A stretch of DNA of 64,000 nucleotides from a phage, in sequence record PZ386958.1; one strand, 5' to 3'. Each line of letters begins with the position of its first letter. Position 1 is the stretch's first letter. Below, piece after piece: positions 4,880 to 61,207 of the stretch. A program made the translations under genes and the position numbers. Below the pieces are notes generated by a model. It ran no database searches, was not told the origin of the DNA, and worked only from the letters and a program-made list of their open reading frames with translations.

Positions 4880-5436
4880 TTAGTGTACCTCATACCAGCT
4901 TTTACCAACCTTACCAGTACCTGTAACAAGTGTTTCTTTCTTAAGACCTAAGTTCTTAGAAGCTTGTCCATAATACCAGTCAGTAACTGCTTTCACTTCT
5001 GCCGTCATACTTTCTGGACATTCCCAACTCGTCTCGTCGTGATAGGAGCACAATAAACGAGCACCTATAGCTGGCTTGCGACCGTTCAACTTCATCAAAC
5101 CTTCGTCAATCATACGACGGCAAGCAAGGTTAATTGCTTCATTCTGAACCTGTGCTTCCGAACTCATCAGGAGGTAGTTCAGTAGTTTATGTGGAGATTT
5201 GCACCATATCCATGCTCCAGCGACCCTGATATAACCACCTTTAGCAATTGAAGAGTTCTTCCCGAAAACCTCTTCCAGAGCCTTTTTAGACGCCTTAAAA
5301 TCGGCTTCTAAGCTATCAAGTAACTTCTTAATCTTTGGCAGACGCATATAGTAAGTTTGTTTAGTCAATGCACCTTCTTCCGTAGATGATGCCTTGATAG
5401 TTTTTGCAAACTTCTCGTCACCTGCACCGAACAATA
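4880..5436 (-). CDS. DNA polymerase (family A, T7 gp5-like), exon 2
   Basis: Begins (L)FGAGDEKFA = end of O-helix/motif B (T7: FLYGAGDEK); contains motif C YHDE and C-terminal GKVGKSWYEVH (T7: GKMGPNWAICH). The track's start M is a TTG codon inside the exon. Confidence 0.8.
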
Positions 5437-5704
5437 CATCTGGTCAATACACTCGCAAGGTGTACCAGTTCTCTTATGAACTTCTCCGCATTTCTACGGA
5501 GTGTCGGACTATATCACGTAGTAGTAATACTACCGTTGCACTTGGGAATGGTCATTAGCTTACCACCCTACTCTACTCAGTTCATACATTAAGTATGCTT
5601 TTCGATAGTCTCTGAACGTTTCTCTTAAGAGGCTTCGCTGCTGATTACCATATCTTTACAGACTTAGGCTTCCAGCAATTCACAACGTTTTACATGCGCC
5701 ACTG
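5437..5704 (-). ncRNA. Group I self-splicing intron (ORF-less, 268 nt) interrupting the DNA polymerase gene
   Basis: RNA strand contains group I R element GUUCAGAGACUA (plus 5606-5617) and S element GAUAUAGUCC (plus 5505-5514) that can pair as P7; internal guide GCGCAU pairs with 5' exon end AUGCGU (terminal U.G); intron ends in G; removal fuses ...AKNGIYA to LLFGAGDEK in frame. Confidence 0.75.
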
Positions 5705-7877
5705 ACGCATAAATGCCATTTTTGGCTTTCTTACGACCTTTTGTAATCTCGTGGAGAAGTTCCTCATCCTGTGTCTCCCTACAACGAACAATATCTTCTT
5801 CCTTGTTCAGACCAAAGTAAATACTGTTCAGTGTATGCGCATCAGTCCCTGTGTAGACTTCATAGAGGTCGTTCTCAGCATCATAACGAAGATACTTGTC
5901 AGTTTCTGGATTAAGATACTTATCGAGATGCTTGCAATAGTATCTGCCATCATCCTGTTTAGTGAACTCTACAAACTCTTTACCCTCAGTTACTGCTTTA
6001 GTGAACTCTTTATCACCCATAAAGTTACAAAGGAGAACTAGCTGGGCTGAGTTCATATCAACGGAGACTACGTTGGTTCCCTCCTCACAAATCCAAACCT
6101 CCCTCATCGGTGCTCCATAGACAGCAGCACCAGACGGTACGTTTACAATGCCATATTGTGTCATACGTCCAGTTGAAGTACCAAACACCATTGCACCAGC
6201 ACTAAGGCGACCATCAGGACGAATCTGGTTCAACCAACCTTTTTCATCATCCTTTGAGTTCTCAATAGTTCTGCGTCGGTGCATCAAAGTGTAGTATTTA
6301 GCAATCTTCTGTCCAAGCTCACCTTCAATCGTATCATAAGATGATTCAGTAAGTTTTGGTGAAGTACGGATTAAGCAAGGCTCAAGCAAATCTGTGTATT
6401 TCTTCACAGACCAGTTATGCTCAATGTACTGTACACCTTCATGTTCAACATAACTCAAACCACACCGCTCAACCATTTCCTGCCACTTAGGATGTTTTGT
6501 AATCATCTTTTTATTGTCTTTGAAACGACAAACTTTGACAGGACGACCATCTGAGTCTTTCTTGTAGTTCCAGTCATCTGGAATCCAACCAACTGATTTC
6601 AAGTAGTCTTTAACAACGGCTACCTGAGTCATACGAGAAACTTCAAACTCAATTGGTGTATATGGTGCATCAATCAAACCTGTGTAGCGACTTGACTCAA
6701 GTTCAAAGTGGTTAACAACGTGGCTGTTATAGTACTTCACAGTCTTGACTGTTTTTACTGGTTTCCAGTCTTTGCATTTTTTGCCAATCTTTGCATTCAA
6801 CTCGTTGCAGATTGCACGAGCATCCTTCATTGCTACAAAGCCTTCCTTGTATTCTTCACCAGTTACAGTGTTGGTTGGCGTATAGCAATTCCTTTTTTCA
6901 ATGTTAAAAATCTTTGTAGTTGGCTTACCAAATGGCTTGATTTCATATGTCTGCATCTCACCGTTACGTACCTGCTGACGATACTTTGTCTTAGGGTACT
7001 TGGTAATTCTCTTCAGTCCATCTGCGTGACCAAATGCTTCAACATACTCATTCCAAGCTTTTGCAAACTCTTCTCCAGTAACTTTACCTTTGGTCTTAAT
7101 AGTTGGAGGTAGATGTGGTTCAACCTCTGAAGCAAGCTCATTAGTCAACTTGTCAAGTTCCTTTACATGGAACTCCATAAGCTCTTTATCAGCTTTCCAA
7201 CCATTGATAGCTTGTTGACTCATCCAGAAAGATGTTTCTTTAGCTCGCATGTAGGTTTCATAAGTGTCTATGCCACACTTCTTAAGCTTGAGATACTCGT
7301 TATCAAGTGCCCGTTTAGTTTTGGCGTTAATACGGATATCTTCTACAACACGAGTGAAGATTTCTGCATTCCACACACCCCAATGCTCAATCTCTGGCTT
7401 ACGAACACCAACACGAGCACCCCATGCAGCCAAGCCATGAGCACCTTTATAACCCTTTGGAGTTGGTCTATCCATCCACTGAACACGAGACTGAATAAGA
7501 GAATCCTGAAAGAAATTACTCCACGGCTTACATTTTGGATTATCAAAGTTCCATAAATCAGGTGCAATGTGATTGAAAACCCACCAGTCATAGCCGAGAC
7601 CATTATGGATGCAAAGACGTTTTGCCTTTAACGCAAATTCAACACCTTCACGTAAGCCGCCCTTGATGTACTTGGTATACTTGTGACCGAGGATAGGCTC
7701 GTCTGTAAAGACCCATACAGGCGGCTCTTCATCGTCAGATTTATAATCTGCGAAAGCCATTACGTGCACTTTAGTGAACTCAAGGAGTAAACCATCAGTT
7801 TCTGTATCACCAACCAAATGTAAGTTTTTAAAATCTACGTTTTCCATTTTTACTCCCTCTAAAATCATTAACCACAT
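5705..7877 (-). CDS. DNA polymerase (family A, T7 gp5-like), exon 1 (3'-5' exonuclease plus N-terminal polymerase domain)
   Basis: Exo I motif DTETDGL near N-terminus; ends with O-helix RKKAKNGIY (T7: RDNAKTFIYG). The track ORF reads 13 codons into the intron before a stop. Confidence 0.8.
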
Positions 7878-13727: not shown

Positions 13728-14774
13728 ATGGAGAAGTACACGCTAACAAAACTTCCCGATTCAGTTACACATGTCTTTATTGACTCTGATAGTATTGCCT
13801 ATAAAGGTGCTTGTGTAGTTGAGAAAGCAAAATATAAGTATGTCAATAAACTCACAGCAGAAGAATCTGAACCATTTGATAATGCAAAAGATGCCGCAAG
13901 ATGGTTAGCAGACCAGAGAATCCTTGTAGAAGAGCTTGGCCTAGCATTTGATGAAGATGAATGGGAAAGACAGACTTGGAAAGAAGCTAAGAGTGAAAAA
14001 GAAGCTATCATGGCTACTCAGCAGGTTCTTCAGGAATGGCTTAAGGTTGTTGGTAAAGAAAGAACTTGGGTAGGTTATTTAACAGAGAAGGGTGTGCATA
14101 AACATAAAGACATTAAAGGTCTTGAGCACCAATATCAAGGTAACCGTAAAGATGCCGTCACACCAACACACTTAGTCGCTTGTCGTGAATACCTTCTGTC
14201 AAGACCAGAGTTTAAGCTGATTCTTGATGGATTTGAAGCTGACTCTATCGTAATTGCTAAAGCTGAAAAGATGGGTAAAAAGGCTGCCTTAATGAGTATT
14301 GATAAAGACCTTCGACAAGCTGAAGGTACTTACTGCATTGATATGACCTATGAAAAATCACCTTTAATTTTTATTGCTGATAACAACGTTGGTGAAATTT
14401 GGGATTGCCCAATAAAATCGACACCAAAAGCTAAGAAGACAGTTGGGGTAGGTTTTAAATTTCTTTGTTATCAAGCTGTGTCTGGTGATAATGCAGATAA
14501 CTATTTTGGTTTAAAGGGCGTTGGTAAGGTTGCTGTAATGAAAGCCCTTGAGGGTAAAACCACTTACAAAGAGTGTCTTGATGCAATTTATGAGCTTTAT
14601 GCTAAGAAAGAGTCATACACTTATGTCTCGTGGGATGGTCAAACAATTACCAGAACACCCTTAGAGCTAATGCAGCAACATTTCTGGATAGCTTATCAGG
14701 AAAGAAATAAGAAAGATGATTTCACTTTTGATAAGTATGGGTGGACACCAAATGTTAACTCAACAAACTCTTAA
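13728..14774 (+). CDS. 5'-3' exonuclease / flap endonuclease (T7 gp6 / T5 D15-like)
   Basis: 348 aa; acidic clusters VFIDSDSIAY, SIDKDL and GDNADNYFGLKGVG resemble FEN-family metal-binding motifs. Confidence 0.55.
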   Translation: MEKYTLTKLPDSVTHVFIDSDSIAYKGACVVEKAKYKYVNKLTAEESEPFDNAKDAARWLADQRILVEELGLAFDEDEWERQTWKEAKSEKEAIMATQQVLQEWLKVVGKERTWVGYLTEKGVHKHKDIKGLEHQYQGNRKDAVTPTHLVACREYLLSRPEFKLILDGFEADSIVIAKAEKMGKKAALMSIDKDLRQAEGTYCIDMTYEKSPLIFIADNNVGEIWDCPIKSTPKAKKTVGVGFKFLCYQAVSGDNADNYFGLKGVGKVAVMKALEGKTTYKECLDAIYELYAKKESYTYVSWDGQTITRTPLELMQQHFWIAYQERNKKDDFTFDKYGWTPNVNSTNS

Positions 14775-15252
14775 AGAGTACCTACACTATGACCCCGAAA
14801 CAGGGGTCTTTACTTGGTTAGTTGATAGAAAAGGTAAGGCCAAAGCTGGTTCAGTGGCAGGTGTTAAACACCATAGTGGTTATATCTATATAAAACTCCT
14901 CGGAAAAAGATATGGAGCACACAGGCTGGCCTTCTTATACATGAAAGGCTACCTCCCAAAATTTGTTGACCATAAGAATTGTATCAGGTATGACAACTGG
15001 TTCGACAATTTGAGAGAATGTAGCAGGTCAGATAATAACTGTAATGCAGTCAAAAGAAGGGATAATAAGTCTGGCGTGAAGGGTGTATACTACCACAAGC
15101 TAACAGGTAGGTGGGCTGCACAAGTTAAGCATAATAAGGTTTGCTATCATCTAGGTCTGTTTGACTCTGTTGCTGATGCTGAATCAGTTGTCAAAAAGAA
15201 AAGAGAAGAACTACATAAAGAGTTTTCAAATCACGGAGAAGCTTATGAATGA
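14752..15252 (+). CDS. HNH homing endonuclease with AP2-type DNA-binding domain
   Basis: Start chosen at MLTQQT (track ORF begins 14716, overlapping exonuclease); LKEYLHYDPETGVFTW ... SGVKGVYYHKLTGRWAAQVKHNKVCYHLGLFDSVADAESV is the HNH_3/AP2 architecture. Confidence 0.6.
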   Translation: MLTQQTLKEYLHYDPETGVFTWLVDRKGKAKAGSVAGVKHHSGYIYIKLLGKRYGAHRLAFLYMKGYLPKFVDHKNCIRYDNWFDNLRECSRSDNNCNAVKRRDNKSGVKGVYYHKLTGRWAAQVKHNKVCYHLGLFDSVADAESVVKKKREELHKEFSNHGEAYE

Positions 15253-21532: not shown

Positions 21533-23677
21533 ATGAACAAAGTACAGATTATTAAAAAGAATGGCTCACTTGAAGAACCTGATATCAAAAAAGTTTTAGC
21601 AGCAGTAACTAAGTCAGCTAACAGGGTTGGTTATAAAGAACTTCCACCAGATGTTACCCAAGCTCTTGAGTCAGCATTTATGAGGATTCTGGTAAAGTCC
21701 ACTAAGCAGAATAATTTGCTCATCTCGGTAAATGACATTCACAGTATTGTTGAGGGTGCTTTGGCAGAAGTCAACCACGAGATTTACGAGTCTTACTCAA
21801 CATATAGAAATTACCGTAAAGAGGTTGCTCAAAATTGGGATGAGCTTTACCAAAAGACTAGAGATACACTCTTCTTAGGTGACCGTGAAAATGCTAACTT
21901 TGACAGTAGTCTAATTTCTACAAAAGGTTCAATTATTCGTGGTTATCTGACTAAAGAAATCTTTAAGCAGTACCATTTAACACCAGAGGAACTTGAAGCC
22001 ATTGAAAAAGGGTTTATCTATATTCATGATTTAAGAGACCTTATTTTTGGTGGTATCAACTGTTGCCTGTTTGACATTGGTAAAGTACTAAAAGGTGGCT
22101 TTGAGATGTCTGGAATTGAATACTGTGAACCGAAGTCTGTGCTGTCAGCCTTACAGGTTATTGGTGATGTAGTTCTTTCAGCAACTGCACAGCAATTTGG
22201 CGGCTTTACTTTAGCAGAGCTTGATAAGGTACTTGTACCGTATGCTAAGAAGTCTCTACGTTACCATGCTGAGAAAGCAGCATCTTATGGTATTCCTAAA
22301 GAACATTACCATAATTATGTCATGGAGCAGCTACAGCTTGAATTGACTCAAGGTTTTCAATCACTTGAGATGAAACTAAATACTGTACCTTGCAGCCGTG
22401 GTGATTTTGCATTCACAACTTTAACATTTGGTTTACTTGACTCAGACATGTCTAATGAAGACAACCGGCTACAATACATGATTGCAAACACTATTCTTGA
22501 TGTTCGTATGAATGGACAAGGTAAGAGTAAGAAGCCTGTTGTATTCCCTAAACTGGTTTATATTTATGACCAGAAGAGACACGATGAGAATATCTGTCAA
22601 GGCCAACTGTACAGTAAAGCTATTGAGTGTTGCTCTAAAGCAATGTATCCAGATTTCTTAAGTGTATCTGGTCATGGTGCTGTAGCAGAGGCTTTTGAGC
22701 GTTCTGGCAAGGTAATTTCACCGATGGGTTGCAGAGCTTTCTTATCCCCATATCTTAACGAGAATGGAGAAGAGTTCTACGTTGGTCGTGCTAACATTGG
22801 TGCTGTATCTTTGAACTTACCAATGATTTACCAGTATTCTAAAGAGAATGGTTTAGATTTCTGGAAAGAGCTTGATAAGTACCTAGAGATGATTCGCAGC
22901 TTCCACAAGAAACGCTACGAAATGATTGCTAATATGCCAGCAAGTTCTAACCCTCTTGCATTCACACAAGGTGGTCTGTACAAAGGGACTAAGAAACCTA
23001 CTGACAAGGTTGGTTGGGATATCGTGAAGTCCTTCACAGCTTCTTTTGGGGTTACTGCGCTTGATGAGTTATCTGTTCTTGCTGAAGGTAAACGACTTCA
23101 TGAAGTTGGAAGTTCTAGTTTTGCATACGATGTTCTGGCATACATTAACATGAAAACTGAAGAGTTTAAGAATGAAGATGGCTTCCTGTATGCAGTATAT
23201 GGCACTCCAGCAGAGTCATTGTGTGGAACTCAGCTAAAACAGTTCAGAGATATGTTTGGCGTTATCAAAGGTGTTTCTGATAAGGAATACTTTACAAACA
23301 GTTTCCATATGAATGTTGCAGCAGATATCTCACCATTTGAGAAGCAGGACTTAGAAGAACCATTCTTCCATATCTGTAGAGGCGGCAGAATCCAGTATGT
23401 AAGGGTAGCTAACCCAGAAAACTTAACAGCACTTAAAAGTTGTATTACAAGAGGGATGTTGAAAGGTTTCTATCAGGGACTTAACTTTGACTTAGCAATC
23501 TGCGAACATTGTGGCAACAGACCAAAGGCTGATGTTGAAGAATGTGAGGTTTGCCATTCACATGACATCTCTGTGATTAACAGAGTGTGTGGGTATCTTG
23601 GGTGGACTAAGATTAAAGGTGAATCCCGAATGAATGATGCAAAAATTGCTGAGATTCGTGATAGGGTTTCTATGTAA
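21533..23677 (+). CDS. nrdD: Anaerobic ribonucleoside-triphosphate reductase (class III)
   Basis: 714 aa; N-terminal ATP-cone, C-terminal Zn ribbon CEHCGN..CEVCHS and glycyl-radical motif RVCGYLG. Confidence 0.85.
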   Translation: MNKVQIIKKNGSLEEPDIKKVLAAVTKSANRVGYKELPPDVTQALESAFMRILVKSTKQNNLLISVNDIHSIVEGALAEVNHEIYESYSTYRNYRKEVAQNWDELYQKTRDTLFLGDRENANFDSSLISTKGSIIRGYLTKEIFKQYHLTPEELEAIEKGFIYIHDLRDLIFGGINCCLFDIGKVLKGGFEMSGIEYCEPKSVLSALQVIGDVVLSATAQQFGGFTLAELDKVLVPYAKKSLRYHAEKAASYGIPKEHYHNYVMEQLQLELTQGFQSLEMKLNTVPCSRGDFAFTTLTFGLLDSDMSNEDNRLQYMIANTILDVRMNGQGKSKKPVVFPKLVYIYDQKRHDENICQGQLYSKAIECCSKAMYPDFLSVSGHGAVAEAFERSGKVISPMGCRAFLSPYLNENGEEFYVGRANIGAVSLNLPMIYQYSKENGLDFWKELDKYLEMIRSFHKKRYEMIANMPASSNPLAFTQGGLYKGTKKPTDKVGWDIVKSFTASFGVTALDELSVLAEGKRLHEVGSSSFAYDVLAYINMKTEEFKNEDGFLYAVYGTPAESLCGTQLKQFRDMFGVIKGVSDKEYFTNSFHMNVAADISPFEKQDLEEPFFHICRGGRIQYVRVANPENLTALKSCITRGMLKGFYQGLNFDLAICEHCGNRPKADVEECEVCHSHDISVINRVCGYLGWTKIKGESRMNDAKIAEIRDRVSM

Positions 23678-26392: not shown

Positions 26393-26663
26393 AGAGAAGT
26401 GGGAGATTTTACCACTAGTCAGTGAGGGTGGGAATGGTTGTGAAATGTACATAATACGTGGTCATGTTCCAGAACCAATTGCACTTGAGATGATAAACAA
26501 TTTTACAGATGGTTCTTACAAAGATTTAGGAGAGCCAACTATAAAGCATCAATGGGTCAAACCTGTACCAGACAGCACAGGTAACTGTAGTGTACTTTAT
26601 CACGTTGTAGACCCTGCAAAATGCAAATCTGCAATGGCAGTAACAAACATAACCTTTGATTGA
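26385..26663 (+). CDS. Hypothetical protein
   Basis: 92-aa ORF. Confidence 0.3.
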   Translation: MAKEKWEILPLVSEGGNGCEMYIIRGHVPEPIALEMINNFTDGSYKDLGEPTIKHQWVKPVPDSTGNCSVLYHVVDPAKCKSAMAVTNITFD

Positions 26664-27556
26664 GAGAGAAAACTATGAAAACTGTTATTGAAGTCGTTGT
26701 CACCGCACAAGAGAAATTCTTCCACACAGAAAAATTTAATATCATCCAATTCCCATCTGGAGAAATTGGTGGAAACTTCTCTGAAGATTTTGTTAAGTTT
26801 ACTGAGCGTAATGCTGGTAAGGTTGACAATGTTATACTTACTGTGCAGGGATATGATAAAGATACACTGTTTGCATTAGCTTTGGCTAAGGATGCCGTTG
26901 ACAGTCTTGTCCCACATAAATCAGCGATGAAAACCGTTGTTTTCGGGTTCTTACCGAATGCTCGATATGACCGACATATGTTCAAAGGTGATTCAGCAGC
27001 ACTGAAAGCTTTTGCCAACCTCGTTAATGCAATGGGCTTTGATGCAGTATGTGCTCTTGACCCTCACAGTAATGTTGCAGAAAACTTATTTAAGTGCTTT
27101 CAGAGCATGAAGCAAAAAGATGTGGCAGTACACTTTGCAAGTGACCCGCGCATTGATTTCTTGGTAGCCCCAGATGCAGGTGCAGCTAAGAAGACTGAAG
27201 AGACTGCTAAAGAGGTGGATAAACCATACATCACAATGACTAAAATGCGTAACCTTAAGACTGGTGAAATTACTGGTATGCGAATCCTTGATGATGTTGA
27301 TTTGACCGATAAAACTGTTATGATTCTCGACGATATCTGTGATGGTGGTCGAACCTTCATAGAAGCAGCTAAACATCTTCGTGAAGCAGGTGCAAAACGT
27401 GTGGAACTCTATGTAACTCATGGCATTTTCTCTAAAGGTGTTGAAAGCTTACTTGACAATGGCATTGACCATATCTACACTACAAACACTTTAGGTGAAG
27501 CTAAAGACCGTGGCTTAACACATTATGGCCAAGTTACTGTAGCAACCATTGATTAG
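26660..27556 (+). CDS. Ribose-phosphate pyrophosphokinase (PRPP synthetase)-family protein; candidate ADPR-pyrophosphate synthetase
   Basis: 298 aa; PRPP-binding loop VMILDDICDGGRTF and RVELYVTHGIFS resemble Prs (VDDMIDTGGT ... RVFAYATHPIFS). Confidence 0.7.
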   Translation: MREKTMKTVIEVVVTAQEKFFHTEKFNIIQFPSGEIGGNFSEDFVKFTERNAGKVDNVILTVQGYDKDTLFALALAKDAVDSLVPHKSAMKTVVFGFLPNARYDRHMFKGDSAALKAFANLVNAMGFDAVCALDPHSNVAENLFKCFQSMKQKDVAVHFASDPRIDFLVAPDAGAAKKTEETAKEVDKPYITMTKMRNLKTGEITGMRILDDVDLTDKTVMILDDICDGGRTFIEAAKHLREAGAKRVELYVTHGIFSKGVESLLDNGIDHIYTTNTLGEAKDRGLTHYGQVTVATID

Positions 27557-27564
27557 GTAACAGT

Positions 27565-28056
27565 ATGAATAAGGGTTATTTTGAAAAATACCTAATATAT
27601 GAACCAGATACAGGTTTATTAATTTGGAGAGTAACCCTTTGCAGTACCGCTATTGCTGGTAATGTGGCTGGCACAAGGTCTAAGAAGGGTTATATCCAAG
27701 TCCAGATAAATAAGAAGAGGTACTATGCACATAATATTGCATGGATTATGTCTGGAGGTGAGATACCAAGTGGATATGAGGTAGACCACATAGACCTTGA
27801 TAAAGCTAATAATAAGTTGGAGAACTTAAGACTTAGCACAAAGTCACAAAATCAGAGGAATAGAGGTATATACAAGAATAATAAAACTGGTGTGAAGGGT
27901 GTAAGTTTTTGTAAACAAACAGGTCTTTACAAAGCAAGAGTCATGCTTTACCATAAAGAATACTTTTGTGGAAGATTTAAAACGGTAGAAGAAGCAAAAG
28001 AAGCTGTAATTAAAAAGCGAATAGAACTTCATGGTGAGTTTGCAAGACATAACTAA
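27565..28056 (+). CDS. HNH homing endonuclease with AP2-type domain
   Basis: 163 aa; paralog of 14752-15252 (YEPDTGLLIWRV ... TGVKGVSFCKQTGLYKARV); inserted between Prs-like and NAMPT-like genes. Confidence 0.6.
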   Translation: MNKGYFEKYLIYEPDTGLLIWRVTLCSTAIAGNVAGTRSKKGYIQVQINKKRYYAHNIAWIMSGGEIPSGYEVDHIDLDKANNKLENLRLSTKSQNQRNRGIYKNNKTGVKGVSFCKQTGLYKARVMLYHKEYFCGRFKTVEEAKEAVIKKRIELHGEFARHN

Positions 28057-28070
28057 GAGAGAGATAAAAT

Positions 28071-29852
28071 ATGAGTAAGTCACTTTACGCAGTACCAGCA
28101 GGTCTTAATGCAGATGCTTACAAGGCATCACATATATATCAGTATCCAGATGCTACGCAATATCTTATGTTGAACCTGACACCACGTAGTGACAAATGGT
28201 TTAACAGTCCCTTAGCAATTGATGGTGTAGTGGCTTTTGGTATTCAACGTTTTGTTAAAGATTACTTGATAGACCACTGGAATACCACCTTCTTTGAACG
28301 TGACAAAAAAGAAGCAATTGACGAAATCTTAGAAGTCATGAATGGTGTTCTGGGTAAAGATGCTATTGGTCGAGAACATTGGGAAGCACTTCACGACTTA
28401 GGTTATCTACCAGTTGAAGTATACGCTGTAGAAGAAGGCACAGTTGTCCCTATGCGTGTACCAATGATTGTCTTCCAGAACACTGTTTCGGGTTTCCATT
28501 GGGTAGCGGGGTATCTGGAAGATGCTTTCTCTGCTGAGATTTGGAAGGCTTGTACCATTGCAACTATTGCATTGCACTACAAACGTATCTGTAAGAAGTG
28601 GGCTGACCTTACTTGTGACAACGCCTTACATTTACCTTACCAGTGCCATGACTTTGCCATGCGTGGTATGTCTGGCTTTACTGATGACGCATTTAACGCT
28701 GTAGGTCACTTAACCAGCTTTAAAGGGACTGATAGCTTCCCTGCTGTGTATACAGCTAAACGCATCTATGGACAGTCCTACCCAATCTCTGATATTGGTA
28801 GTTCTGTACCAGCCACTGAACACTCTGTAATGTGTGCAAACATTGCTTGGGAAGGTGGTAACGAGTTGATTGAAGAAGAAAGACGCTTTAAAGGTGAGTT
28901 ACAAACCTTCCGTCGTTTCTTAACAGAGACTTACCCGACTGGTATTGCAAGTGTTGTTTCAGACACTTATAACTTCTGGAGAACTGTATCAGTCATATTA
29001 CCAGAACTCCGTAAAGAGATTATGGAACGTGATGGAAAACTGGTAATTCGTCCTGACTCTGGAGACCCTGTACATATTGTCACAGGCTATAAAGCAATCC
29101 ACTTAGAGTGTGCTAAAAAGGCTTATTACGAACACCTAAGCAAGCTGGAAGCCAGCGACACAATGTTGAATGCTGTTCTGAACATGAAGCTTGAAAACAT
29201 CAATTATGGTATTGCTGGATGGCTATTGTCAGAAGGCTACGAAATGGTTGTTGACAGAGAAGACTTTGAAGTTGCTGATACAGTGCTGTTGAAAAATGCT
29301 TATATGGTTGGTTCTGCAAACGTTGTAACACGTCCTGTAGCGGAGATTGATGGAGCTATCAAGACACTGTATAACATCTTTGGAGGAACTATCAACGCTA
29401 AAGGTTTTAAAGTACTGGATGAGCATATCGGACTTATTTATGGTGACTCTATCACGTTGGAACGTGCAAACGAAATCCTGAAGCGTTTGTATGAAATGGG
29501 TTTTGCAAGCTCTAACGTAGTGTTTGGTGTAGGTTCTTACACTTACCAGTACATGACTCGTGACACCTTTGCATTTGCTGTCAAAGCAACTCTTGCAAGC
29601 ATTGGTGGTAAAGAGATTATGCTTGCAAAAGACCCTAAAACAGATAGCGGTGTTAAGAAGTCTGCTTTTGGTGGTGTAGCACCTATGTGGGATGGTGATA
29701 AACTGAAAGCTGTAGATGGCTATGGATTCCAGAGCTTTGCAGATGTGCTTGAACATCCAGCTTGTGCTTTACGTTTAGTCTTTAGCGACTCTGAGCAGTT
29801 CGGTTACACAACTCTTGGTGATATTCGAAATAATATTGACAAGCAACTTTAA
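28071..29852 (+). CDS. Nicotinamide phosphoribosyltransferase (NAMPT)-family protein
   Basis: 593 aa; N-terminal YKASHIYQYPD..T and overall architecture resemble NAMPT/NadV; longer than typical. Confidence 0.65.
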   Translation: MSKSLYAVPAGLNADAYKASHIYQYPDATQYLMLNLTPRSDKWFNSPLAIDGVVAFGIQRFVKDYLIDHWNTTFFERDKKEAIDEILEVMNGVLGKDAIGREHWEALHDLGYLPVEVYAVEEGTVVPMRVPMIVFQNTVSGFHWVAGYLEDAFSAEIWKACTIATIALHYKRICKKWADLTCDNALHLPYQCHDFAMRGMSGFTDDAFNAVGHLTSFKGTDSFPAVYTAKRIYGQSYPISDIGSSVPATEHSVMCANIAWEGGNELIEEERRFKGELQTFRRFLTETYPTGIASVVSDTYNFWRTVSVILPELRKEIMERDGKLVIRPDSGDPVHIVTGYKAIHLECAKKAYYEHLSKLEASDTMLNAVLNMKLENINYGIAGWLLSEGYEMVVDREDFEVADTVLLKNAYMVGSANVVTRPVAEIDGAIKTLYNIFGGTINAKGFKVLDEHIGLIYGDSITLERANEILKRLYEMGFASSNVVFGVGSYTYQYMTRDTFAFAVKATLASIGGKEIMLAKDPKTDSGVKKSAFGGVAPMWDGDKLKAVDGYGFQSFADVLEHPACALRLVFSDSEQFGYTTLGDIRNNIDKQL

Positions 29853-29865
29853 AAGTATATGATAA

Positions 29866-29889
29866 GAGGCTCCTACGGGAGCCTTTTTA
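29866..29889 (+). terminator. Intrinsic terminator (gaggctcctacgggagccttttt)
   Basis: Stem-loop plus T-run. Confidence 0.6.
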
Positions 29890-35834: not shown

Positions 35835-36719
35835 ATGAAACCAATGTTCAAATATCTTGGTGGTAAAACAAGAATATTAAAAGAGTATGAGCGTTTAGGT
35901 GTCTTTCCAGACAACTGTAAAAACTTCTATGACCTGTTTTCAGGTGGTGGTTCAGTAGCTATCTGGGCTTATAACAGATACCCAGAGGCAAAAGTGTTTA
36001 TTAATGAGATAAATAAACATATTATAGGTCTTTACACAACTTTCAGAGATGACTATGAAAACTTCATGGAAGAATTTGAGTACTTGTCAAAGAGGTACTT
36101 AGCCTTACCTATGCAGGAAGAGTATGCCGTGAAAGGCCAGCGTCATAACCGTCTACGCTATAAAATGTATTACAGTGTAAGAGAAGAACTTCTTTTGCTT
36201 GGTGAAGAAGGAACATATGACTACAGGTACTATGCCAGACAGTTTTTCCTTCAAAAACTAAGTTTTGGTGGAGTATGGCAGACTACTAAAGAGATGAGAG
36301 GTCACTATGCAACACCTTGTGGGTATTTACTGGAAGAAGAGATTTTCTTCACAAAAACTAAAAAATCACTATCCGAGTTTTACAGTTTTATCACCGATGA
36401 AAGGGTAATACTTAGCAGTGAACCTTATGACAGGGTTGACATAAAACATGGAGAAGACACAGTTATTTACTGTGACCCTCCATATATCAACACCAACCAG
36501 AAATATGGTGTAAAGTTTGACATTGAGATGTCTGTAAAATTATGCGAAGATATGGTTTCTTGGGGGGAGTTAGGCTCTAAAGTTTTGATGTCAAACTCTC
36601 AGTGGGATGGATGGGCAAACCTAATTCCTGAAAATTTTAACTTGACAGAGGTTAGTCATTCATACACAATACATGCACAGAGAAGCAAAGATATTAGCGA
36701 AGTAATTATTCACAACTAA
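35835..36719 (+). CDS. DNA N6-adenine methyltransferase (Dam-like)
   Basis: 294 aa; N-terminal FKYLGGK and catalytic DPPY (VIYCDPPYINT). Confidence 0.65.
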   Translation: MKPMFKYLGGKTRILKEYERLGVFPDNCKNFYDLFSGGGSVAIWAYNRYPEAKVFINEINKHIIGLYTTFRDDYENFMEEFEYLSKRYLALPMQEEYAVKGQRHNRLRYKMYYSVREELLLLGEEGTYDYRYYARQFFLQKLSFGGVWQTTKEMRGHYATPCGYLLEEEIFFTKTKKSLSEFYSFITDERVILSSEPYDRVDIKHGEDTVIYCDPPYINTNQKYGVKFDIEMSVKLCEDMVSWGELGSKVLMSNSQWDGWANLIPENFNLTEVSHSYTIHAQRSKDISEVIIHN

Positions 36720-36730
36720 GGTATCAAGTT

Positions 36731-37543
36731 ATGGCAAACAGCATCAATGTAGCACTGAATGGCAAGGTTGTTAAAATTCACACTAAGATTATCAGTGTCG
36801 AGGATTTTCTTAATGAAAAACGTTACAAAGAAAACCCTCGTCAACGAAATACACTTAAGCGTCTGAAAAGCAAACACCTTAATGGTGACGTATCACCAGA
36901 CCAAACAGTAGTTCATGTGGCTAAGTTCGGTAGTTCACTGTTCATCATTGATGGGCACTCACGTCGAGAGGCATGGAAAGTTGGTAACCTGACACGACCA
37001 GAAAACTTGATTGCAGTTATATACCATGTGAACTCCATATTGGATGTCACAGATTTGTACACTCATTTTGACTCTGAGTTAGCAAGAGAAAAACCTTCAG
37101 AAGTTTATTACGGAAATATGAAGATGATTTCTTTCAACCCAGAGTCAGAACTGATGAAAGCATCTTGGGCAACTGCTATTAAGTATGTTGCTGCATATTA
37201 CGGTGTGCAACAAGTCTCTAACACTGAAACAGTTAAATACCTTAATGACTTTAAAAATGAGCTGGAACAAATTGATTCTCTTGAAGTACAGCTTAAAGGT
37301 GTAGTAAACGCAAAACGGAAGTATTCTTCTGGGATTCGTGCAGCAATGTTAATTACACTACGCCTATATGGTGATGCTGCATTTTCCTTTTGGGAAGACT
37401 ATAATGACTACTGTGAAGGTATGTCTAACAAATATGTTACAGAGGCATACCAACTTGCATTACAAGCTGGTCGCGGAGCACAGGCTGATAAGTTGTTGAT
37501 GAATCAAGCGATTTCACTTGTCAACTATTACAGTCAAGAATAA
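36731..37543 (+). CDS. ParB/Srx-like nuclease domain protein
   Basis: 270 aa; FIIDGHSRREAW resembles ParB-type DGxHR motif. Confidence 0.4.
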   Translation: MANSINVALNGKVVKIHTKIISVEDFLNEKRYKENPRQRNTLKRLKSKHLNGDVSPDQTVVHVAKFGSSLFIIDGHSRREAWKVGNLTRPENLIAVIYHVNSILDVTDLYTHFDSELAREKPSEVYYGNMKMISFNPESELMKASWATAIKYVAAYYGVQQVSNTETVKYLNDFKNELEQIDSLEVQLKGVVNAKRKYSSGIRAAMLITLRLYGDAAFSFWEDYNDYCEGMSNKYVTEAYQLALQAGRGAQADKLLMNQAISLVNYYSQE

Positions 37544-39110: not shown

Positions 39111-39896
39111 ATGGGTATTGTAAAAATCATCAATGGGGATATCTTCTCCGCATTTGATAAAGGTAAGTTTGATATCATTGGTCACGGTTGCAACTGTATG
39201 AACTTAATGGGTTCAGGTATCGCTGACAAGATTTCTAAACTTTACCCAAAAGTGTATGATACTGACACAGAAGTTTACCTGTTTGCAGGCGGCATTCGTC
39301 ACAAACCCTGTGAAAATTTACTAGGTAATTTATCTGTAGCACGTTTAAAACAAGGTCGTATAGCTAACCTTTACACCCAACTTCATACTGGTAAAGATGC
39401 CCGATATAGTGCTTTAGAGTCATCTTTGAAACAGCTTAACAGATACTGTGAAGTCAATCAGTTGAAGAAAGTCGGGTTACCTATGATTGGTGCAGGCATC
39501 GGTGGGCTAGACCCTCAAGCCGTCACAGTTATCATTAATCAAGTGATGAAGAGTGTAGATGTGTATCTGTATGTCTATGAAGGAGAGATGTACCACAAGT
39601 TACGCTCAGGTTGGAAGAACTACTGTGAACCAGAATACTTTGCAGGTGTAGTAACGTTCACAGACAATACAGTTACCCTCTTCAGACGAAGAAAAGGTAA
39701 GATACATCAAAGTAACCCTCCGGTTGAAAAGATGTCTCTTAGTAACGCTCTAGTTACCCACCTGTCGAAGAGCAATCACAGGATTGCAGTAACATTTGGT
39801 AGTGATGCAGACACTTATATCTATGCAAGAACTGATGAGGATATCGAGACAGTTTTCTCTTCGCCAGAAGTTACCTTCTTAGACGCAAAGAACTAA
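39111..39896 (+). CDS. Macrodomain protein (TARG1/OARD1-like ADP-ribose hydrolase fold) with C-terminal extension
   Basis: 261 aa; GDIFSAFDKGKFDIIGHGCNCMNLMGSGIADKI parallels the TARG1-type segment (EGDLF...LAHCIS.DC.MGAGIA). Confidence 0.5.
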   Translation: MGIVKIINGDIFSAFDKGKFDIIGHGCNCMNLMGSGIADKISKLYPKVYDTDTEVYLFAGGIRHKPCENLLGNLSVARLKQGRIANLYTQLHTGKDARYSALESSLKQLNRYCEVNQLKKVGLPMIGAGIGGLDPQAVTVIINQVMKSVDVYLYVYEGEMYHKLRSGWKNYCEPEYFAGVVTFTDNTVTLFRRRKGKIHQSNPPVEKMSLSNALVTHLSKSNHRIAVTFGSDADTYIYARTDEDIETVFSSPEVTFLDAKN

Positions 39897-58689: not shown

Positions 58690-58766
58690 CTCTGTTTAGC
58701 TCAGCTTGGTAGAGCGTTCCGTTTGGGGCGGTAAGGCCGGAGGTTCAAGTCCTCCAACAGAGACCA
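58690..58766 (+). tRNA. tRNA-Pro (anticodon TGG)
   Basis: Acceptor CTCTGTT/AACAGAG, T-arm GGAGG-TTCAAGT-CCTCC, loop TTTGGGG, 3' CCA encoded. Confidence 0.6.
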
Positions 58767-58773
58767 AATTAAT

Positions 58774-58851
58774 GTTCCAGTAGACAAAATGGTATAGTCA
58801 CCACTCTTTCAAAGTGGATATCTGAGGGTTCAAATCCCTTCTGGAACGCCA
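58774..58851 (+). tRNA. tRNA-Glu (anticodon TTC)
   Basis: Acceptor GTTCCAG/CTGGAAC, anticodon stem CCACT/AGTGG loop CTTTCAA, T-loop TTCAAAT, CCA encoded. Confidence 0.6.
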
Positions 58852-58857
58852 GTTTTG

Positions 58858-58931
58858 ACAGAAGACCAATTACAGCAAACTTAATCTTATTCATCTGAAG
58901 GTAAATCGGACAAAGAAGAGATTTGGTCTGG
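58858..58931 (+). ncRNA. Bracket stem-loop element a (ACAGAAGACCaatTACAGCAA ... tTTGGTCTGG)
   Basis: 5' AGACCAA pairs with 3' TTGGTCT; conserved TACAGCAA; one of four copies with compensatory changes. Confidence 0.45.
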
Positions 58932-58942
58932 TCATTAAGAAT

Positions 58943-59019
58943 TGCGGGTATAGAGAAAGGGCGTCTCACATGTCTCATTAGCATGGTATCGGCAGGTTCG
59001 ACTCCTGCACCCGCCTCCA
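58943..59019 (+). tRNA. tRNA with CAT anticodon (Met or Ile-lysidine)
   Basis: Anticodon stem CATGT/GCATG loop CTCATTA; T-arm GCAGG-TTCGACT-CCTGC; 1-72 mismatch; CCA encoded. Confidence 0.5.
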
Positions 59020-59024
59020 AATTT

Positions 59025-59090
59025 ACAGAAGACCGTTTACAGCAATATTTATTAAATTTTTAGCGGAAAAATTGAAAGATACGGTCTGGT
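59025..59090 (+). ncRNA. Bracket stem-loop element b
   Basis: ACAGAAGACCGTTTACAGCAA ... ACGGTCTGG; AGACCGT pairs with ACGGTCT. Confidence 0.45.
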
Positions 59091-59102
59091 AATACTAAAC
59101 AT

Positions 59103-59179
59103 GGTTAGGAAGCACATAAGGTATGTGCGGTCGCCTGTTAAGCGAATGGCACAGGGTTCGAATCCCTGACTAACCGCCA
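59103..59179 (+). tRNA. tRNA-Asn (anticodon GTT)
   Basis: Loop CTGTTAA; T-arm CAGGG-TTCGAAT-CCCTG; acceptor 3' ACTAACC-G-CCA. Confidence 0.55.
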
Positions 59180-59248
59180 AATTTAGGAGAGAAGCGATTG
59201 CTCACCGATTTGTAAGGTGCAAGTCCTTAGCCTGAATAGAAATTAAAT

Positions 59249-59336
59249 GTGTCGTTATCCCGTAGATGGTAGCGGTGGGGACTGTAAATCCCTTGTCATT
59301 GAGACTCGGTAGGTTCTACTCCTACACGGCACACCA
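59249..59336 (+). tRNA. tRNA-Tyr (anticodon GTA), long variable arm
   Basis: 88 nt; anticodon stem GGGGA/TCCCT loop CTGTAAA; acceptor GTGTCGT/ACGGCAC; CCA encoded. Confidence 0.55.
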
Positions 59337-59341
59337 ATAAA

Positions 59342-59419
59342 GGTTATGTAGTTTAATTTGGTTAAAATACTCCCCTGTCACGGGAGATGATGAGGGTTCA
59401 AATCCCTTCGTAACCGCCA
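59342..59419 (+). tRNA. tRNA-Asp (anticodon GTC)
   Basis: Anticodon stem CTCCC/GGGAG loop CTGTCAC; T-arm GAGGG-TTCAAAT-CCCTT; CCA encoded. Confidence 0.6.
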
Positions 59420-59450
59420 ATTTTGAGAGGGCTATTTAGCCCCTCCCTTA

Positions 59451-59478
59451 AATGGTTCTTACGAGTATCCTTTAAAGG
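59451..59478 (+). ncRNA. Conserved small hairpin GGTTCTTACGAG(T/A)(A/G)TCCTT(T)AAA (copy 1)
   Basis: Second copy at 62447-62474. Confidence 0.3.
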
Positions 59479-59480
59479 AG

Positions 59481-59553
59481 CAGAAGACCAAATACAGCAA
59501 GAACGTATGAAATTTCAAGCCAATTTAATTTTGAAAATTTAAACTTGGTCTGG
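59481..59553 (+). ncRNA. Bracket stem-loop element c
   Basis: CAGAAGACCAAATACAGCAA ... CTTGGTCTGG. Confidence 0.45.
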
Positions 59554-59565
59554 CTCAACAAATTT

Positions 59566-59698
59566 ACAGAAGACCGTCTACAGCAAAACTTAAACAATCT
59601 ATTTCTCCGGTAAAGAAAAGGCGAAGGTTCGATTCCTTCACTCGGCAGATGTCGAGTTGGTGTAATGGTAGCACTTAAGATGATAAACAACGGTCTGG
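59566..59698 (+). ncRNA. Bracket element d enclosing a permuted tRNA-like module (T-arm, acceptor-like hairpin, D-arm); candidate Y-RNA-like ncRNA
   Basis: Closing stem AGACCGT(C)/ACGGTCT; inside: GAAGG-TTCGATT-CCTTC, hairpin ACTCGGC-AGAT-GTCGAGT, then TGGTGTAATGGTAGCAC; no anticodon arm. Confidence 0.45.
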
Positions 59699-59701
59699 TA
59701 A

Positions 59702-59841
59702 TTATCTTTGTAGATAAGTTATTAAGCTTACCTGTGAGTATGCGACCACAAAGGGTGAAAGGGTAAATTCTAGATTTAAACCCAAAAAGGCACATCGCTA
59801 CAGACCTTAAGCAAGTCTGGGTAGCTTATCTACAAAGATAA
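59702..59841 (+). ncRNA. Structured element closed by a perfect 17-bp inverted repeat (TTATCTTTGTAGATAAG / CTTATCTACAAAGATAA)
   Basis: Enclosed ~106 nt has internal hairpins (CAGACCTTAAGCAAGTCTG; AGCTTACC...GGTAGCTT); no ORF. Confidence 0.4.
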
Positions 59842-59847
59842 TTTAAT

Positions 59848-59923
59848 GGAAGTGTAGCAGAATGGTGATGCGGCAGACTTTTAATCTGACAGGCGATGGG
59901 TTCGAATCCCTCCACTTCTACCA
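59848..59923 (+). tRNA. tRNA-Lys (anticodon TTT)
   Basis: Acceptor GGAAGTG/CACTTCT; D-loop AGCAGAATGGTGATGC; loop CTTTTAA; T-loop TTCGAAT; CCA encoded. Confidence 0.55.
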
Positions 59924-59927
59924 AAAT

Positions 59928-60004
59928 GGTTCAGTCGCAGATAAGGTAATGCAGGGGTCTCATAAGCCCTATGAATGTGGGTTCGATTCCCATCTGAACC
60001 TCCA
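59928..60004 (+). tRNA. tRNA with CAT anticodon (second copy; Met or Ile-lysidine)
   Basis: Acceptor GGTTCAG/CTGAACC; anticodon stem GGGGT/GCCCT loop CTCATAA; T-loop TTCGATT; CCA encoded. Confidence 0.5.
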
Positions 60005-60006
60005 AT

Positions 60007-60081
60007 TGTGGGTTAGCATAAATGGTAATGCAAACGGCTGATAACCGTTAGAAGAGGGTTCGATACCCTCACCTACAACCA
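60007..60081 (+). tRNA. tRNA-Ile (anticodon GAT)
   Basis: Anticodon stem AACGG/CCGTT loop CTGATAA; T-arm GAGGG-TTCGATA-CCCTC; CCA encoded. Confidence 0.6.
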
Positions 60082-60095
60082 ATTTCAATAAAGTT

Positions 60096-60130
60096 GTTGA
60101 CATTAAGATGTGACTACTTTATAGTAACCT
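60096..60130 (+). promoter_or_regulatory. Sigma70-like promoter inside tRNA cluster (gttgacattaagatgtgactactttatagtaacc)
   Basis: TTGACA - 17 nt - TATAGT. Confidence 0.5.
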
Positions 60131-60328
60131 TAGTTTTCGTTGCGTAGCGTCTATTTTGCAAATTTAAAATAAATGCAAACGACAATGTTTTTCTGGCAGT
60201 AGCTTGATAGGCTAAACACCAGTGAGGTCTTCCAATCCCTCATCAAAGAATTTGGCGTACTCGCCCACGGTATGATTAATAAGGTGGGCATCTTTAAGGG
60301 CTTTCTAAGAGAGTCTTTAAAGATTAAT

Positions 60329-60403
60329 GCTCCGTTAGTCTAAAGGATAGGCATCTGTCTTCTAAACAGATTGATATAGGTTCGAGTCCTATACGGAGTG
60401 CCA
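60329..60403 (+). tRNA. tRNA-Arg (anticodon TCT)
   Basis: Acceptor GCTCCGT/ACGGAGT; anticodon stem TCTGT/ACAGA loop CTTCTAA; T-loop TTCGAGT; CCA encoded. Confidence 0.6.
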
Positions 60404-60519
60404 TATTTAGAGTGTCTCCAAATGGAGGTGGTCTGTATCTCATGTTTTCCAGAACATGTAAATAATCTGAGAAGGGGCTTTACAGTGTTGAGATAATACG
60501 GTAAGCTTCGAATTATAAT

Positions 60520-60602
60520 ATGGGACGATGTTAAGACTCTAAGGCATGAGCAACGGCTTCCAACACCGTTTCAAAGGGGTTCAACTCCTCCGTCCCATGC
60601 CA
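60520..60602 (+). tRNA. Atypical 83-nt tRNA (possible anticodon CCA, Trp) or tRNA-like gene
   Basis: Acceptor ATGGGAC/GTCCCAT and T-arm AGGGG-TTCAACT-CCTCC clear, CCA encoded; D/anticodon region too long and folds ambiguously. Confidence 0.35.
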
Positions 60603-60615
60603 AAGTCTTATTAGG

Positions 60616-60703
60616 GGTAGGTAGCGGCTAATGGTAGCCAAACTGTCTTGAAAACAGTTGCCACTGTAGAGATACGGTGAGGGTTCGACTCCTTTACTTA
60701 CCG
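60616..60703 (+). tRNA. tRNA-Ser (anticodon TGA), long variable arm; CCA apparently not encoded
   Basis: Anticodon stem ACTGT/ACAGT loop CTTGAAA; long extra arm; T-arm GAGGG-TTCGACT-CCTTT; acceptor 3' ACTTACC-G then CCT. Confidence 0.45.
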
Positions 60704-60859
60704 CCTAATAAGATTTTAAAGCCAAGCTTCATTCGGATGTTGCTTTGGCATCCCTCGTGTTGTCGTACACACTAATAAAGCACCTAGTAGGTGTCATGGA
60801 GAAGAGATAATATCAAGCTCTCCAAAGGTTCTAGTCACCGGATTAAACAAGACTATGCA

Positions 60860-60880
60860 AAGACCAATTTAGGTCTTTTT
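60860..60880 (+). terminator. Hairpin plus T-run (aagaccaatttaggtcttttt)
   Basis: Stem AGACC/GGTCT followed by TTTTT within tRNA cluster. Confidence 0.45.
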
Positions 60881-61036: not shown

Positions 61037-61043
61037 AATTAAT

Positions 61044-61119: not shown

Positions 61120-61125
61120 AACATT

Positions 61126-61201: not shown

Positions 61202-61207
61202 ATTAGT

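Follow-up and report, generated by a model that had tools for sequence, protein, structure and literature searches.

A probable NARP1 anti-defence module with an intervening homing-endonuclease gene in a FelixO1-like phage

The window, a stretch of 64,000 nucleotides from phage record PZ386958.1, very likely carries an NAD+ reconstitution pathway 1 (NARP1) anti-defence module. An ORF scan identified three open reading frames on the same (+) strand, 26660..27556 (298 aa when read from a TTG), 27565..28056 (163 aa) and 28071..29852 (593 aa), and family scans confirmed the arrangement that had been described from the letters alone, a Prs-like gene and a NAMPT-like gene separated only by an HNH_3 + AP2 gene. 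The interpretation of this pair as NARP1 was borne out: the first enzyme is identical to bas63_0079 of phage Bas63 at 281 of 293 residues (96%), the second to bas63_0080 at 574 of 593 (97%), and the latter carries a Namat-specific motif. The phage of the window is a FelixO1-like member of Felixounavirus (259 related records; 95.6% nucleotide identity to ECML-1) and is almost identical to Escherichia phage Bas63 (JohannRWettstein, MZ501086), the phage in which NARP1 was discovered and whose operon bas63_0079/0080 has been validated genetically (Osterman et al., 'Phages reconstitute NAD+ to counter bacterial immunity', bioRxiv 10.1101/2024.02.11.579819). The module is already known and is not a discovery; what we report here are its orthology, its motif content, its fold and the presence/absence polymorphism of its HNH gene (Table 1).

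Table 1. Features of the probable NARP1 locus, in positions of the whole window
Feature	Position	Strand	Basis or content
adps, ADP-ribose pyrophosphate synthetase (Prs-family), 293 aa	26675..27556	+	identity to Bas63 Adps; family scans
Catalytic Lys K190 of Adps	27242-27244	+	aligned to SPbetaL1 K162
PRPP-type loop VMILDDICDGGRTF in adps	27317-27358	+	
Homing-endonuclease cassette (predicted)	27557..28070	+	8-nt spacer GTAACAGT, HNH ORF, 14-nt spacer GAGAGAGATAAAAT
HNH_3+AP2 ORF, 163 aa	27565-28056	+	Pfam, phrog_99
namat, nicotinamide ADP-ribose transferase (NAMPT-family), 593 aa	28071..29852	+	identity to Bas63 Namat; sequence and fold matches
Selectivity-clamp loop (SCL) S40-D41-K42-W43	28188..28199	+	alignment; rule from PMC12774641
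Lineage-specific insertion, Namat residues 342-427 (~86 residues)	29094..29351	+	gap between aligned stretches vs 9W5W
Selectivity-clamp helix (SCH) motif GSYTYQYMTRD, residues 488-498	29532..29564	+	Namat-specific adenine-stacking signature; sequence verified
Terminator-like hairpin, 10-bp stem then T-run	29864..29887	+	12 nt past namat stop; consensus scan and sequence

Although the ORF scan gave 26660..27556 for the Prs-like gene, its start most likely lies at the ATG at 26675 rather than at the TTG, since this ATG is the annotated start in Bas63, FelixO1, Si3 and mio and is preceded by GAGAGAGA, a purine-rich motif also found ahead of the Namat ATG. The TTG and the stop codon of the preceding gene overlap. 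Both PRPP-binding motifs quoted earlier, VMILDDICDGGRTF and RVELYVTHGIFS, are present in this ORF. Adps matched Pribosyltran (1e-11) and Pribosyl_synth (4.7e-10) in Pfam, TIGR01251 ribP_PPkin (135.7 bits, cut-off 113) and phrog_619 in PHROGs (4e-97). No solved Adps structure was found by sequence search; the SPbetaL1 Adps, with 34% identity, scored 95 bits, compared with at most 68 bits for any solved Prs. K190 aligns with K162, which is essential in SPbetaL1 Adps and equivalent to K197 of Bacillus subtilis Prs. Adps proteins form a clade apart from cellular Prs, and a Namat adjoins 97% of its members; here, a Namat homologue lies well within ~10 genes of adps, 515 nt downstream with one gene intervening, and by sequence the protein appears to fall in the phage Adps clade and not with cellular Prs. 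By analogy, Adps would convert ADPR and ATP to ADPR-PP and would not use ribose-5-phosphate. Among Felixounaviruses, Adps occurs with either of two sharply diverged N-terminal halves. This dimorphism could reflect selection by a host factor that targets Adps, an idea that we consider rather doubtful.

Namat matched NAPRTase (4.4e-34) and NAMPT_N in Pfam, NF006629 (469.6 bits, cut-off 405) and phrog_448 in PHROGs (1e-200). Its best solved relative by sequence was the SPbetaL1 Namat (9W5W/9W5X, 5e-129), followed by 9KE8 (1e-105), a Haemophilus ducreyi enzyme deposited under the NadV/Nampt name, with the remaining Nampt chains at 1e-50 to 1e-39. A fold search also returned 9W5W/9W5X as the top match, with target-normalised TM values of 0.94-0.95. 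Taking partner-protomer Asp/Tyr, Phe, Arg, Asp, the catalytic His and RPDSG as the Nampt-like catalytic core, we located D15, Y17, F195, R198, D221, H251, R327 and D329 in the protein, and none of these positions varies among 44 homologues; every catalytic and NAD-contact residue is retained. The SCH motif has been defined as GS-X-phi-X-phi-X-phi-TRD, and in the SCL the adenine-stacking residue is either an Arg at position 3 or the residue that follows a Lys or Tyr at that position (PMC12774641). Namat of the window contains both elements: its SCH has Met at phi3, as in Bas63, instead of the commoner Asn or Val, and its SCL is of the Bas63 type, with Lys in third position and an aromatic residue next, SDKW being identical to the Bas63 loop. 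By analogy with its characterised relatives, this Namat probably prefers ADPR-PP over PRPP and would yield NAD+ directly.

The sequence-only reading had held that sequence alone cannot separate such a pair from Prs plus NadV, a statement that is now out of date, as a Namat-specific motif has been published (NAR 2026, PMC12774641) and is present here. In canonical salvage, a true PRPP synthetase and a true Nampt/NadV would make NMN, to be turned into NAD+ by host NadR or PncC. The Pfam, NCBIfam and PHROG names, all Prs and NAMPT/NAPRTase, agree with such a route, as do the second rank of H. ducreyi NadV among the solved relatives and the observation that, in the absence of ADPR-PP, Namat still converts PRPP to NMN in vitro (PMC12774641). 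Against it stand the adenine clamp, the distinctness of the Adps clade with its adjoining Namat genes, and the biochemistry of SPbetaL1, whose Adps used ADPR in vitro and gave no product from ribose-5-phosphate, the Prs substrate, and whose Namat preferred ADPR-PP over PRPP (bioRxiv 10.1101/2024.02.11.579819). Moreover, the 96-97% identical genes of Bas63 function in a pncC nadR double-deletion host, so that rescue is independent of both host genes, and ADPR-PP was detected in infected cells only when the Bas63 operon was combined with a defence system (bioRxiv 10.1101/2024.02.11.579819). Canonical salvage is consequently a very improbable account of the locus, although the residual PRPP-to-NMN activity of Namat means that some canonical salvage flux is possible. 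NARP2 (Nampt + Nmnat/NatV, as in Vibrio phage KVP40) and cellular Prs + NadV share homologous families and the nicotinamide-ribosyl coupling chemistry with the window's pair, but they proceed through PRPP and NMN and need an NMN adenylyltransferase, and the Namat clamp sets the window's pair apart from them. The window contains Adps, and neither CTP_transf_like nor NUDIX was found among its 38 large ORFs (>=130 aa).

Under NARP1, an NAD+-depleting defence (SIR2-HerA, DSR, type I Thoeris, SEFIR or similar) would split NAD+ into ADP-ribose and nicotinamide. Adps would then use ATP to pyrophosphorylate ADP-ribose to ADPR-PP, and Namat would combine ADPR-PP with nicotinamide to give NAD+ directly, bypassing the host NMN-to-NAD+ steps. 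When genes 79-80 were removed from Bas63, about 20-fold fewer plaques formed on SIR2-HerA cells and NAD+ was no longer sustained; the in vitro chemistry comes from the SPbetaL1 enzymes, and Bas63 Adps purified poorly (bioRxiv 10.1101/2024.02.11.579819). We infer that the alleles of the PZ386958.1 phage act like their SPbetaL1 counterparts in chemistry and like their Bas63 counterparts in anti-defence. The HNH gene would lie outside the pathway while sharing a single transcript with both enzyme genes, from which Namat would be translated through its own ribosome-binding site. A consensus scan found no terminator-like site separating any of the three ORFs and placed the next such site at the hairpin after namat; on the basis of such scans, the three genes are probably co-transcribed, and the transcription unit probably ends at this hairpin, to judge by its pattern.

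The middle gene had been read as a free-standing homing endonuclease, and both its domains and its distribution among relatives support this. It matched HNH_3 (3.9e-19) and, below threshold, AP2 (4.5e-4) in Pfam, as well as phrog_99 in PHROGs (8e-68); no solved structure was found for the protein by sequence search. A paralogue with 39% identity lies at 14716-15252 in the window. Of 259 related phage records, 62, about a quarter, contain the gene, FelixO1 among them; Bas63, mio, REP7 and EC6 lack it and have in its place a spacer of ~45 nt with the hairpin GGGGCTTnAAAGCCCC followed by ATTTT. The cassette is 99% identical in nucleotides to the copy in Si3, although the adjoining adps genes of the two phages are only 79.5% identical. 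A nuclease domain joined to a DNA-binding domain, an intergenic site, a presence/absence polymorphism and a cassette more conserved than its flanks are all features of homing endonucleases, and the gene is accordingly a predicted free-standing homing endonuclease, common, selfish and outside the NARP1 pathway. It replaced the short hairpin-containing spacer of its HNH-free relatives, and the Namat ribosome-binding site was kept, since the 14-nt spacer GAGAGAGATAAAAT carries the motif GAGAGAGA.

Identity between the window and Si3 is 99-100% along the stretch from the HNH gene to ~100 nt into namat, 97% over the next 100 nt of namat and 89-95% in the flanks. In five genomes, ~20 sites within the first ~100 nt of namat seemed to segregate with the presence of the HNH gene, and one haplotype of this 5' end (haplotype I) is carried by all sampled HNH-bearing phages. 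A co-conversion tract strictly linked to this gene was nevertheless rejected once REP7 and EC6 were included, as these HNH-free phages showed that the haplotype can occur without the gene.

Accessory pathway genes are known to occupy the junction between adps and namat. A third gene is found there in NARP1-AP (Adps-Adpp-Namat; Vibrio phage Gary and relatives such as IW18) and in the RyDEP-containing NARP1 of mycobacteriophage DyoEdafos. This position, together with the tight packing of the HNH gene between both enzymes, raises the idea that it is a functional third component, in the manner of the Macro phosphatase Adpp or of RyDEP. However, the inserts in those systems are pathway enzymes (a Macro-domain phosphatase and a RyR-domain glycosidase), whereas HNH_3 together with an AP2 DNA-binding domain is typical of homing endonucleases. 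Bas63 NARP1 works without the gene, most related records lack it, its near-identical copies sit beside diverged adps genes, and a paralogue lies elsewhere in the window. A role of the HNH protein in the pathway is therefore extremely unlikely.

A homing endonuclease could also have damaged the module by uncoupling or silencing Namat, which would make the locus a decaying NARP1, and the loss of the native spacer with its hairpin through the insertion fits this. Yet both enzyme ORFs are intact with all catalytic residues kept, the ribosome-binding motif ahead of Namat is retained, the cassette has no terminator-like site, and the arrangement persists in the HNH-bearing records, FelixO1 among them, with Namat still ~97% conserved; we regard an impaired module as highly unlikely. 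An intact NARP1 module could still differ in the relative expression of Adps and Namat from the phage in which it was tested, because the insertion removes the Bas63-type hairpin spacer.

Bas63 and the window share the genus, the genomic position between the nrdG region and rIIA, and a 593-aa Namat with the same insertion subdomain and clamp residues. They differ in that Bas63 has adps and namat without an intervening gene, separated by a 45-nt spacer with a GC hairpin, carries a further small gene after namat (bas63_0081) that is absent from the window, and has another haplotype in the first ~100 nt of namat. Salmonella phage FelixO1 (NC_005282 / AF320576; ORF127-ORF128-nadV) shares the Adps-HNH-Namat order with the window, and its insertion occupies the identical place. 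In the supplementary tables of the original study, its Namat is listed as 'Adps-associated' and its Adps orthologue appears in the Adps table. Its HNH copy shares only 90% identity with that of the window, and its Adps is a recombinant of the two allele classes.

The length of Namat, earlier called unusual, is normal for its lineage, the Bas63 protein having exactly 593 aa. SPbetaL1 (OQ921341) shares the two-gene pathway, the catalytic Lys of Adps, and the Namat core with its GS-X-phi-X-phi-X-phi-TRD clamp, but its enzymes are only 34% (Adps) and ~43% (Namat) identical to those of the window, its clamp loop has Arg40 in place of Lys42-Trp43, and its 491-aa Namat lacks the 86-residue insertion and another of ~15 residues. 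The larger insertion accounts for most of the extra length and forms a compact alpha/beta subdomain shortly past the RPDSGDP motif, with pLDDT values of ~93-97 inside the full model and 93.3 when modelled alone. It was seen only in Ounavirinae-like phages; no fold match was found for it in the PDB or BFVD and no family match in Pfam. An intein or a fused domain was rejected as the source of the length, as the insertion is in-frame, confidently folded and shared with Bas63.

Pfam and PHROGs searches detected no accessory NARP1 genes (Macro/Adpp or RyR/RyDEP) in the middle gene, the four upstream neighbours or the two downstream neighbours, and no Macro-domain gene lies within two genes of the pair, as it does in NARP1-AP. 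The only Macro-domain gene of the window, of the TARG1/Poa1p class and orthologous to bas63_0095, is located 9.3 kb downstream (39111-39896). Felixounaviruses might run a 'split' extended pathway, in which this distal Adpp-like protein would convert ADPR-1''-phosphate or other ADP-ribose conjugates to ADPR for Adps and Namat, although we consider this improbable. The published survey would miss such a gene because only two genes around NARP1 were examined.

The locus is orthologous and nearly identical to the founding NARP1 operon, and its HNH arrangement, as in FelixO1, is already part of the published catalogue. Public records label these genes 'ribose-phosphate pyrophosphokinase' and 'nicotinamide phosphoribosyltransferase', and the clamp motif makes it possible to rename them Adps and Namat. 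A split pathway, if true, would confer resistance to aRES-type defences. NARP1 variation within a single phage genus offers several small leads: the orphan insertion in Namat, the dimorphic Adps, the hairpin-replacing endonuclease and the distal Macro gene.

Sequence evidence places the adps–namat pair in NARP1, the two-enzyme phage pathway that reconstitutes NAD+, and suggests that it works like NARP1, since it has all the defining features that can be judged from sequence. The pathway was discovered through genes 79-80 of the Felixounavirus Bas63 (Escherichia phage JohannRWettstein, MZ501086; bioRxiv 10.1101/2024.02.11.579819), and the Adps and Namat encoded here share 281 of 293 residues with bas63_0079 and 574 of 593 with bas63_0080. 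Bas63 lacking genes 79-80 plates ~20-fold less efficiently on SIR2-HerA cells and cannot keep NAD+ up, the effect of the operon is independent of host pncC and nadR, and ADPR-pyrophosphate (ADPR-PP) was seen only when operon and defence system were present together (bioRxiv 10.1101/2024.02.11.579819). In vitro, the homologues from phage SPbetaL1 convert ADPR and ATP to ADPR-PP, and ADPR-PP and nicotinamide to NAD+, with ADPR-PP favoured over PRPP (bioRxiv 10.1101/2024.02.11.579819). The NARP1 interpretation in the sequence-only reading is thus correct, with the Bas63 orthologues, the Namat clamp and the published definition of Adps in agreement, and the module itself is already known: FelixO1, which has the same gene order including the HNH gene, is in the published catalogue, and its orthologues appear in the supplementary tables of the NARP1 study as Adps and 'Adps-associated' Namat.

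The three ORFs lie in the same orientation and are closely packed (ORF scan), and profile scans upheld the families first assigned to them, the peptide motifs quoted at that stage also being found in the sequence. The adps product belongs to the ribose-phosphate diphosphokinase family (Pfam Pribosyltran and Pribosyl_synth; TIGR01251 above the cut-off; phrog_619 at 4e-97), the HNH gene product has a weak AP2 domain after its HNH_3 domain (3.9e-19; Pfam) and matches phrog_99, and the namat product is a NAMPT/NAPRTase family member. The region is matched at 92–96% DNA identity by some 200 genomes of Felixounavirus (FelixO1-like myoviruses of Escherichia, Salmonella and Shigella), with ECML-1 the top match (95.6%). 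The start of adps is most likely ATG 26675, given that four relatives are annotated with the same start and that GAGAGAGA stands just before it, as it does before the namat ATG. Consensus scans found no terminator-like site between the three ORFs; the hairpins with T-runs lie outside the trio, a strong one 3' of namat and a second preceding the upstream 171-aa gene, which makes co-transcription of the three genes plausible on the basis of these scans only.

Features of the NARP1 locus and related genes in the window
Feature	Position	Strand	Details
HNH_3+AP2 paralogue	14716-15252	+	39% identical to the HNH gene of the NARP1 locus
adps	26660/26675-27556	+	ORF scan
Dimorphic N-terminal ~150 codons of adps	26675-27130		compared with L006:1176-2057 and L008:3501-4382 (comparison loci)
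HNH gene	27565-28056	+	ORF scan
namat	28071-29852	+	593 aa; ORF scan
Large insertion in Namat	29094-29351		residues 342-427, shortly after the RPDSGDP motif; alignment to SPbetaL1 Namat
Strong hairpin and T-run, 3' of namat	29864-29887		consensus scan
Macro-domain gene	39111-39896	+	261 aa; N-terminal Macro PF01661, 31.4 bits

Whether the two enzymes are closer to Adps and Namat or to canonical Prs and NadV had been put forward as a check on this interpretation, and both comparisons favour NARP1. No solved Adps structure was found by sequence search of the PDB, where any solved Prs scored at most 68 bits, compared with 95 bits (34% identity) for the biochemically characterised SPbetaL1 Adps. 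K190 aligns with K162 of the latter, an essential residue (bioRxiv 10.1101/2024.02.11.579819). Adps are defined in the literature by clade membership and a neighbouring Namat, and both are found here. For Namat, the top solved relatives by sequence are 9W5W/9W5X (5e-129), which are SPbetaL1 Namat, ahead of Haemophilus ducreyi NadV (1e-105) and other Nampt chains (1e-50 to 1e-39) in the PDB search; Namat crystal structures are also the top fold match of the AlphaFold2 model (pLDDT 92.7; target-normalised TM-score 0.94–0.95). The residues of the shared catalytic core (D15, Y17, F195, R198, D221, H251, R327 and D329) are intact and invariant in 44 homologues. A 2026 structural study defined a two-part 'selectivity clamp' of Namat, in which the aromatic residues of a helix motif, GS-X-phi-X-phi-X-phi-TRD, stack on the substrate adenine and a variable loop supplies one further stacking residue (PMC12774641). 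Residues 488-498 of the present Namat read GSYTYQYMTRD, and its clamp loop is S40-D41-K42-W43, in which K42-W43 matches the Lys-then-aromatic arrangement described for Bas63 Namat.

The length of Namat, initially considered unusual, is exactly that of its Bas63 counterpart. The excess over the 491-aa SPbetaL1 Namat is mostly one ~86-residue insertion, with a second of ~15 residues near residue 260. In the full model, the large insertion is folded with high confidence into a compact alpha/beta subdomain, as it also is when modelled alone (pLDDT 93.3); it has no Pfam match, and fold searches of the PDB and BFVD gave nothing significant. The 254 phage records that contain it are all Ounavirinae-like, and it is also found in remoter 580–610-aa homologues from metagenomes and Yersinia and Pectobacterium phages, while insertions of other lengths occupy the same site in other homologues. 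Since Bas63 carries it, the insertion is compatible with NARP1 function.

Neither Macro nor RyR domains were detected in the immediate neighbour genes (Pfam, PHROGs), which argues for plain NARP1 rather than the NARP1-AP or RyDEP variant, and the lack of an NMN adenylyltransferase or Nudix gene among the 38 large ORFs of the window argues against a NARP2-type arrangement. A distal gene does encode a Macro-domain protein, orthologous to bas63_0095 (annotated 'putative phosphatase'), which over its N-terminal 154 residues shares 29% identity (pairwise E 3e-16) with the Macro protein of Vibrio phage IW18 (L011:3001-3477), encoded between Adps and Namat in an operon of NARP1-AP type. The published survey, which reached only two genes out from NARP1, would have missed it. 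That this protein is a distal Adpp-like partner of NARP1 is only a hypothesis, as such proteins are common in NARP1-free phages; it is possibly an unrelated ADP-ribose hydrolase. Its nearest solved relatives are TARG1/OARD1, and it has a sub-threshold DarG-like match. Elsewhere in the window, a gene for a D12-class (Dam-like) adenine methyltransferase (35835-36719, +) precedes a 270-aa gene (phrog_2615, no Pfam match). Compared with Bas63, this pair (35835-37543, +) has probably been inserted, as in the Bas63 annotation the spanin genes come directly after the 154-aa gene. As in other Felixounaviruses, 25 tRNA genes are clustered at 58690-63556 (+).

The HNH gene appears to be a free-standing homing endonuclease, judging from its HNH_3 and AP2 domains, phrog_99 membership, patchy presence, replacement of a spacer, cassette conservation and a paralogue. 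It is found in 62 of the 259 records containing the region, and Bas63, mio, REP7 and EC6 lack it. HNH-free genomes have a ~45-nt adps–namat spacer (L005:16528-16572 in Bas63) with the GC-rich hairpin GGGGCTTnAAAGCCCC followed by a T-run (ATTTT), labelled a terminator in one record. The HNH cassette exactly substitutes for this hairpin, from the adps stop codon (TAG, not TGA) to just before the conserved GAGAGAGA preceding namat. The hairpin may be an internal attenuator within the 'two-gene operon' of HNH-free relatives, which the cassette would delete. The cassettes of the window and Si3 are 99% identical, whereas identity between their adps genes is only 79.5%; scored per 100 alignment columns, identity is 96–100% (mostly 99–100%) across the HNH gene and the initial ~100 nt of namat, 97% in the 100 columns after that and 89–95% further out, the pattern expected if the cassette spread laterally in recent times with some flanking co-conversion. 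Those first ~100 nt (28071-28170; alignment A6) occur as two haplotypes ~25% apart, altering residues 2, 19-20, 22, 27, 30 and 34; every HNH-carrying phage sampled has haplotype I, whereas either occurs in HNH-free phages. Strict segregation of ~20 sites with the HNH gene was ruled out by two further HNH-free genomes with the 'HNH-type' haplotype.

The window also has a group I intron (5484-5767, -; Rfam RF00028, 63.3 bits), which overlaps the 3' end of a 737-aa ORF (5664-7877, -) and adjoins a 184-aa ORF (4880-5434, -), and one large ORF has a SegE-type GIY-YIG endonuclease domain. The nrdD gene (21533-23677, +) is one unbroken 714-aa ORF, unlike that of Bas63, whose annotation splits it in two around a homing-endonuclease gene; here too, a selfish element is polymorphic for presence or absence.

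Among otherwise ~95%-identical Felixounaviruses, Adps falls into two allele classes, which are 68% identical over residues 1-150 and 89–90% over residues 151-293. The adps DNA identity drops to 61–64% over 26677-26977, between flanks of 92–100%. The window, Bas63 and FelixO1 share one N-terminal form and Si3 and mio have the other; FelixO1 adps is a recombinant of both classes. The class common to the window and Bas63 is the minority one. Identity to the present Adps is at least 90% in 54 phage records, 80–90% in 38 and 60–80% in 163. This dimorphism could have arisen from an imported allele or from diversifying selection.
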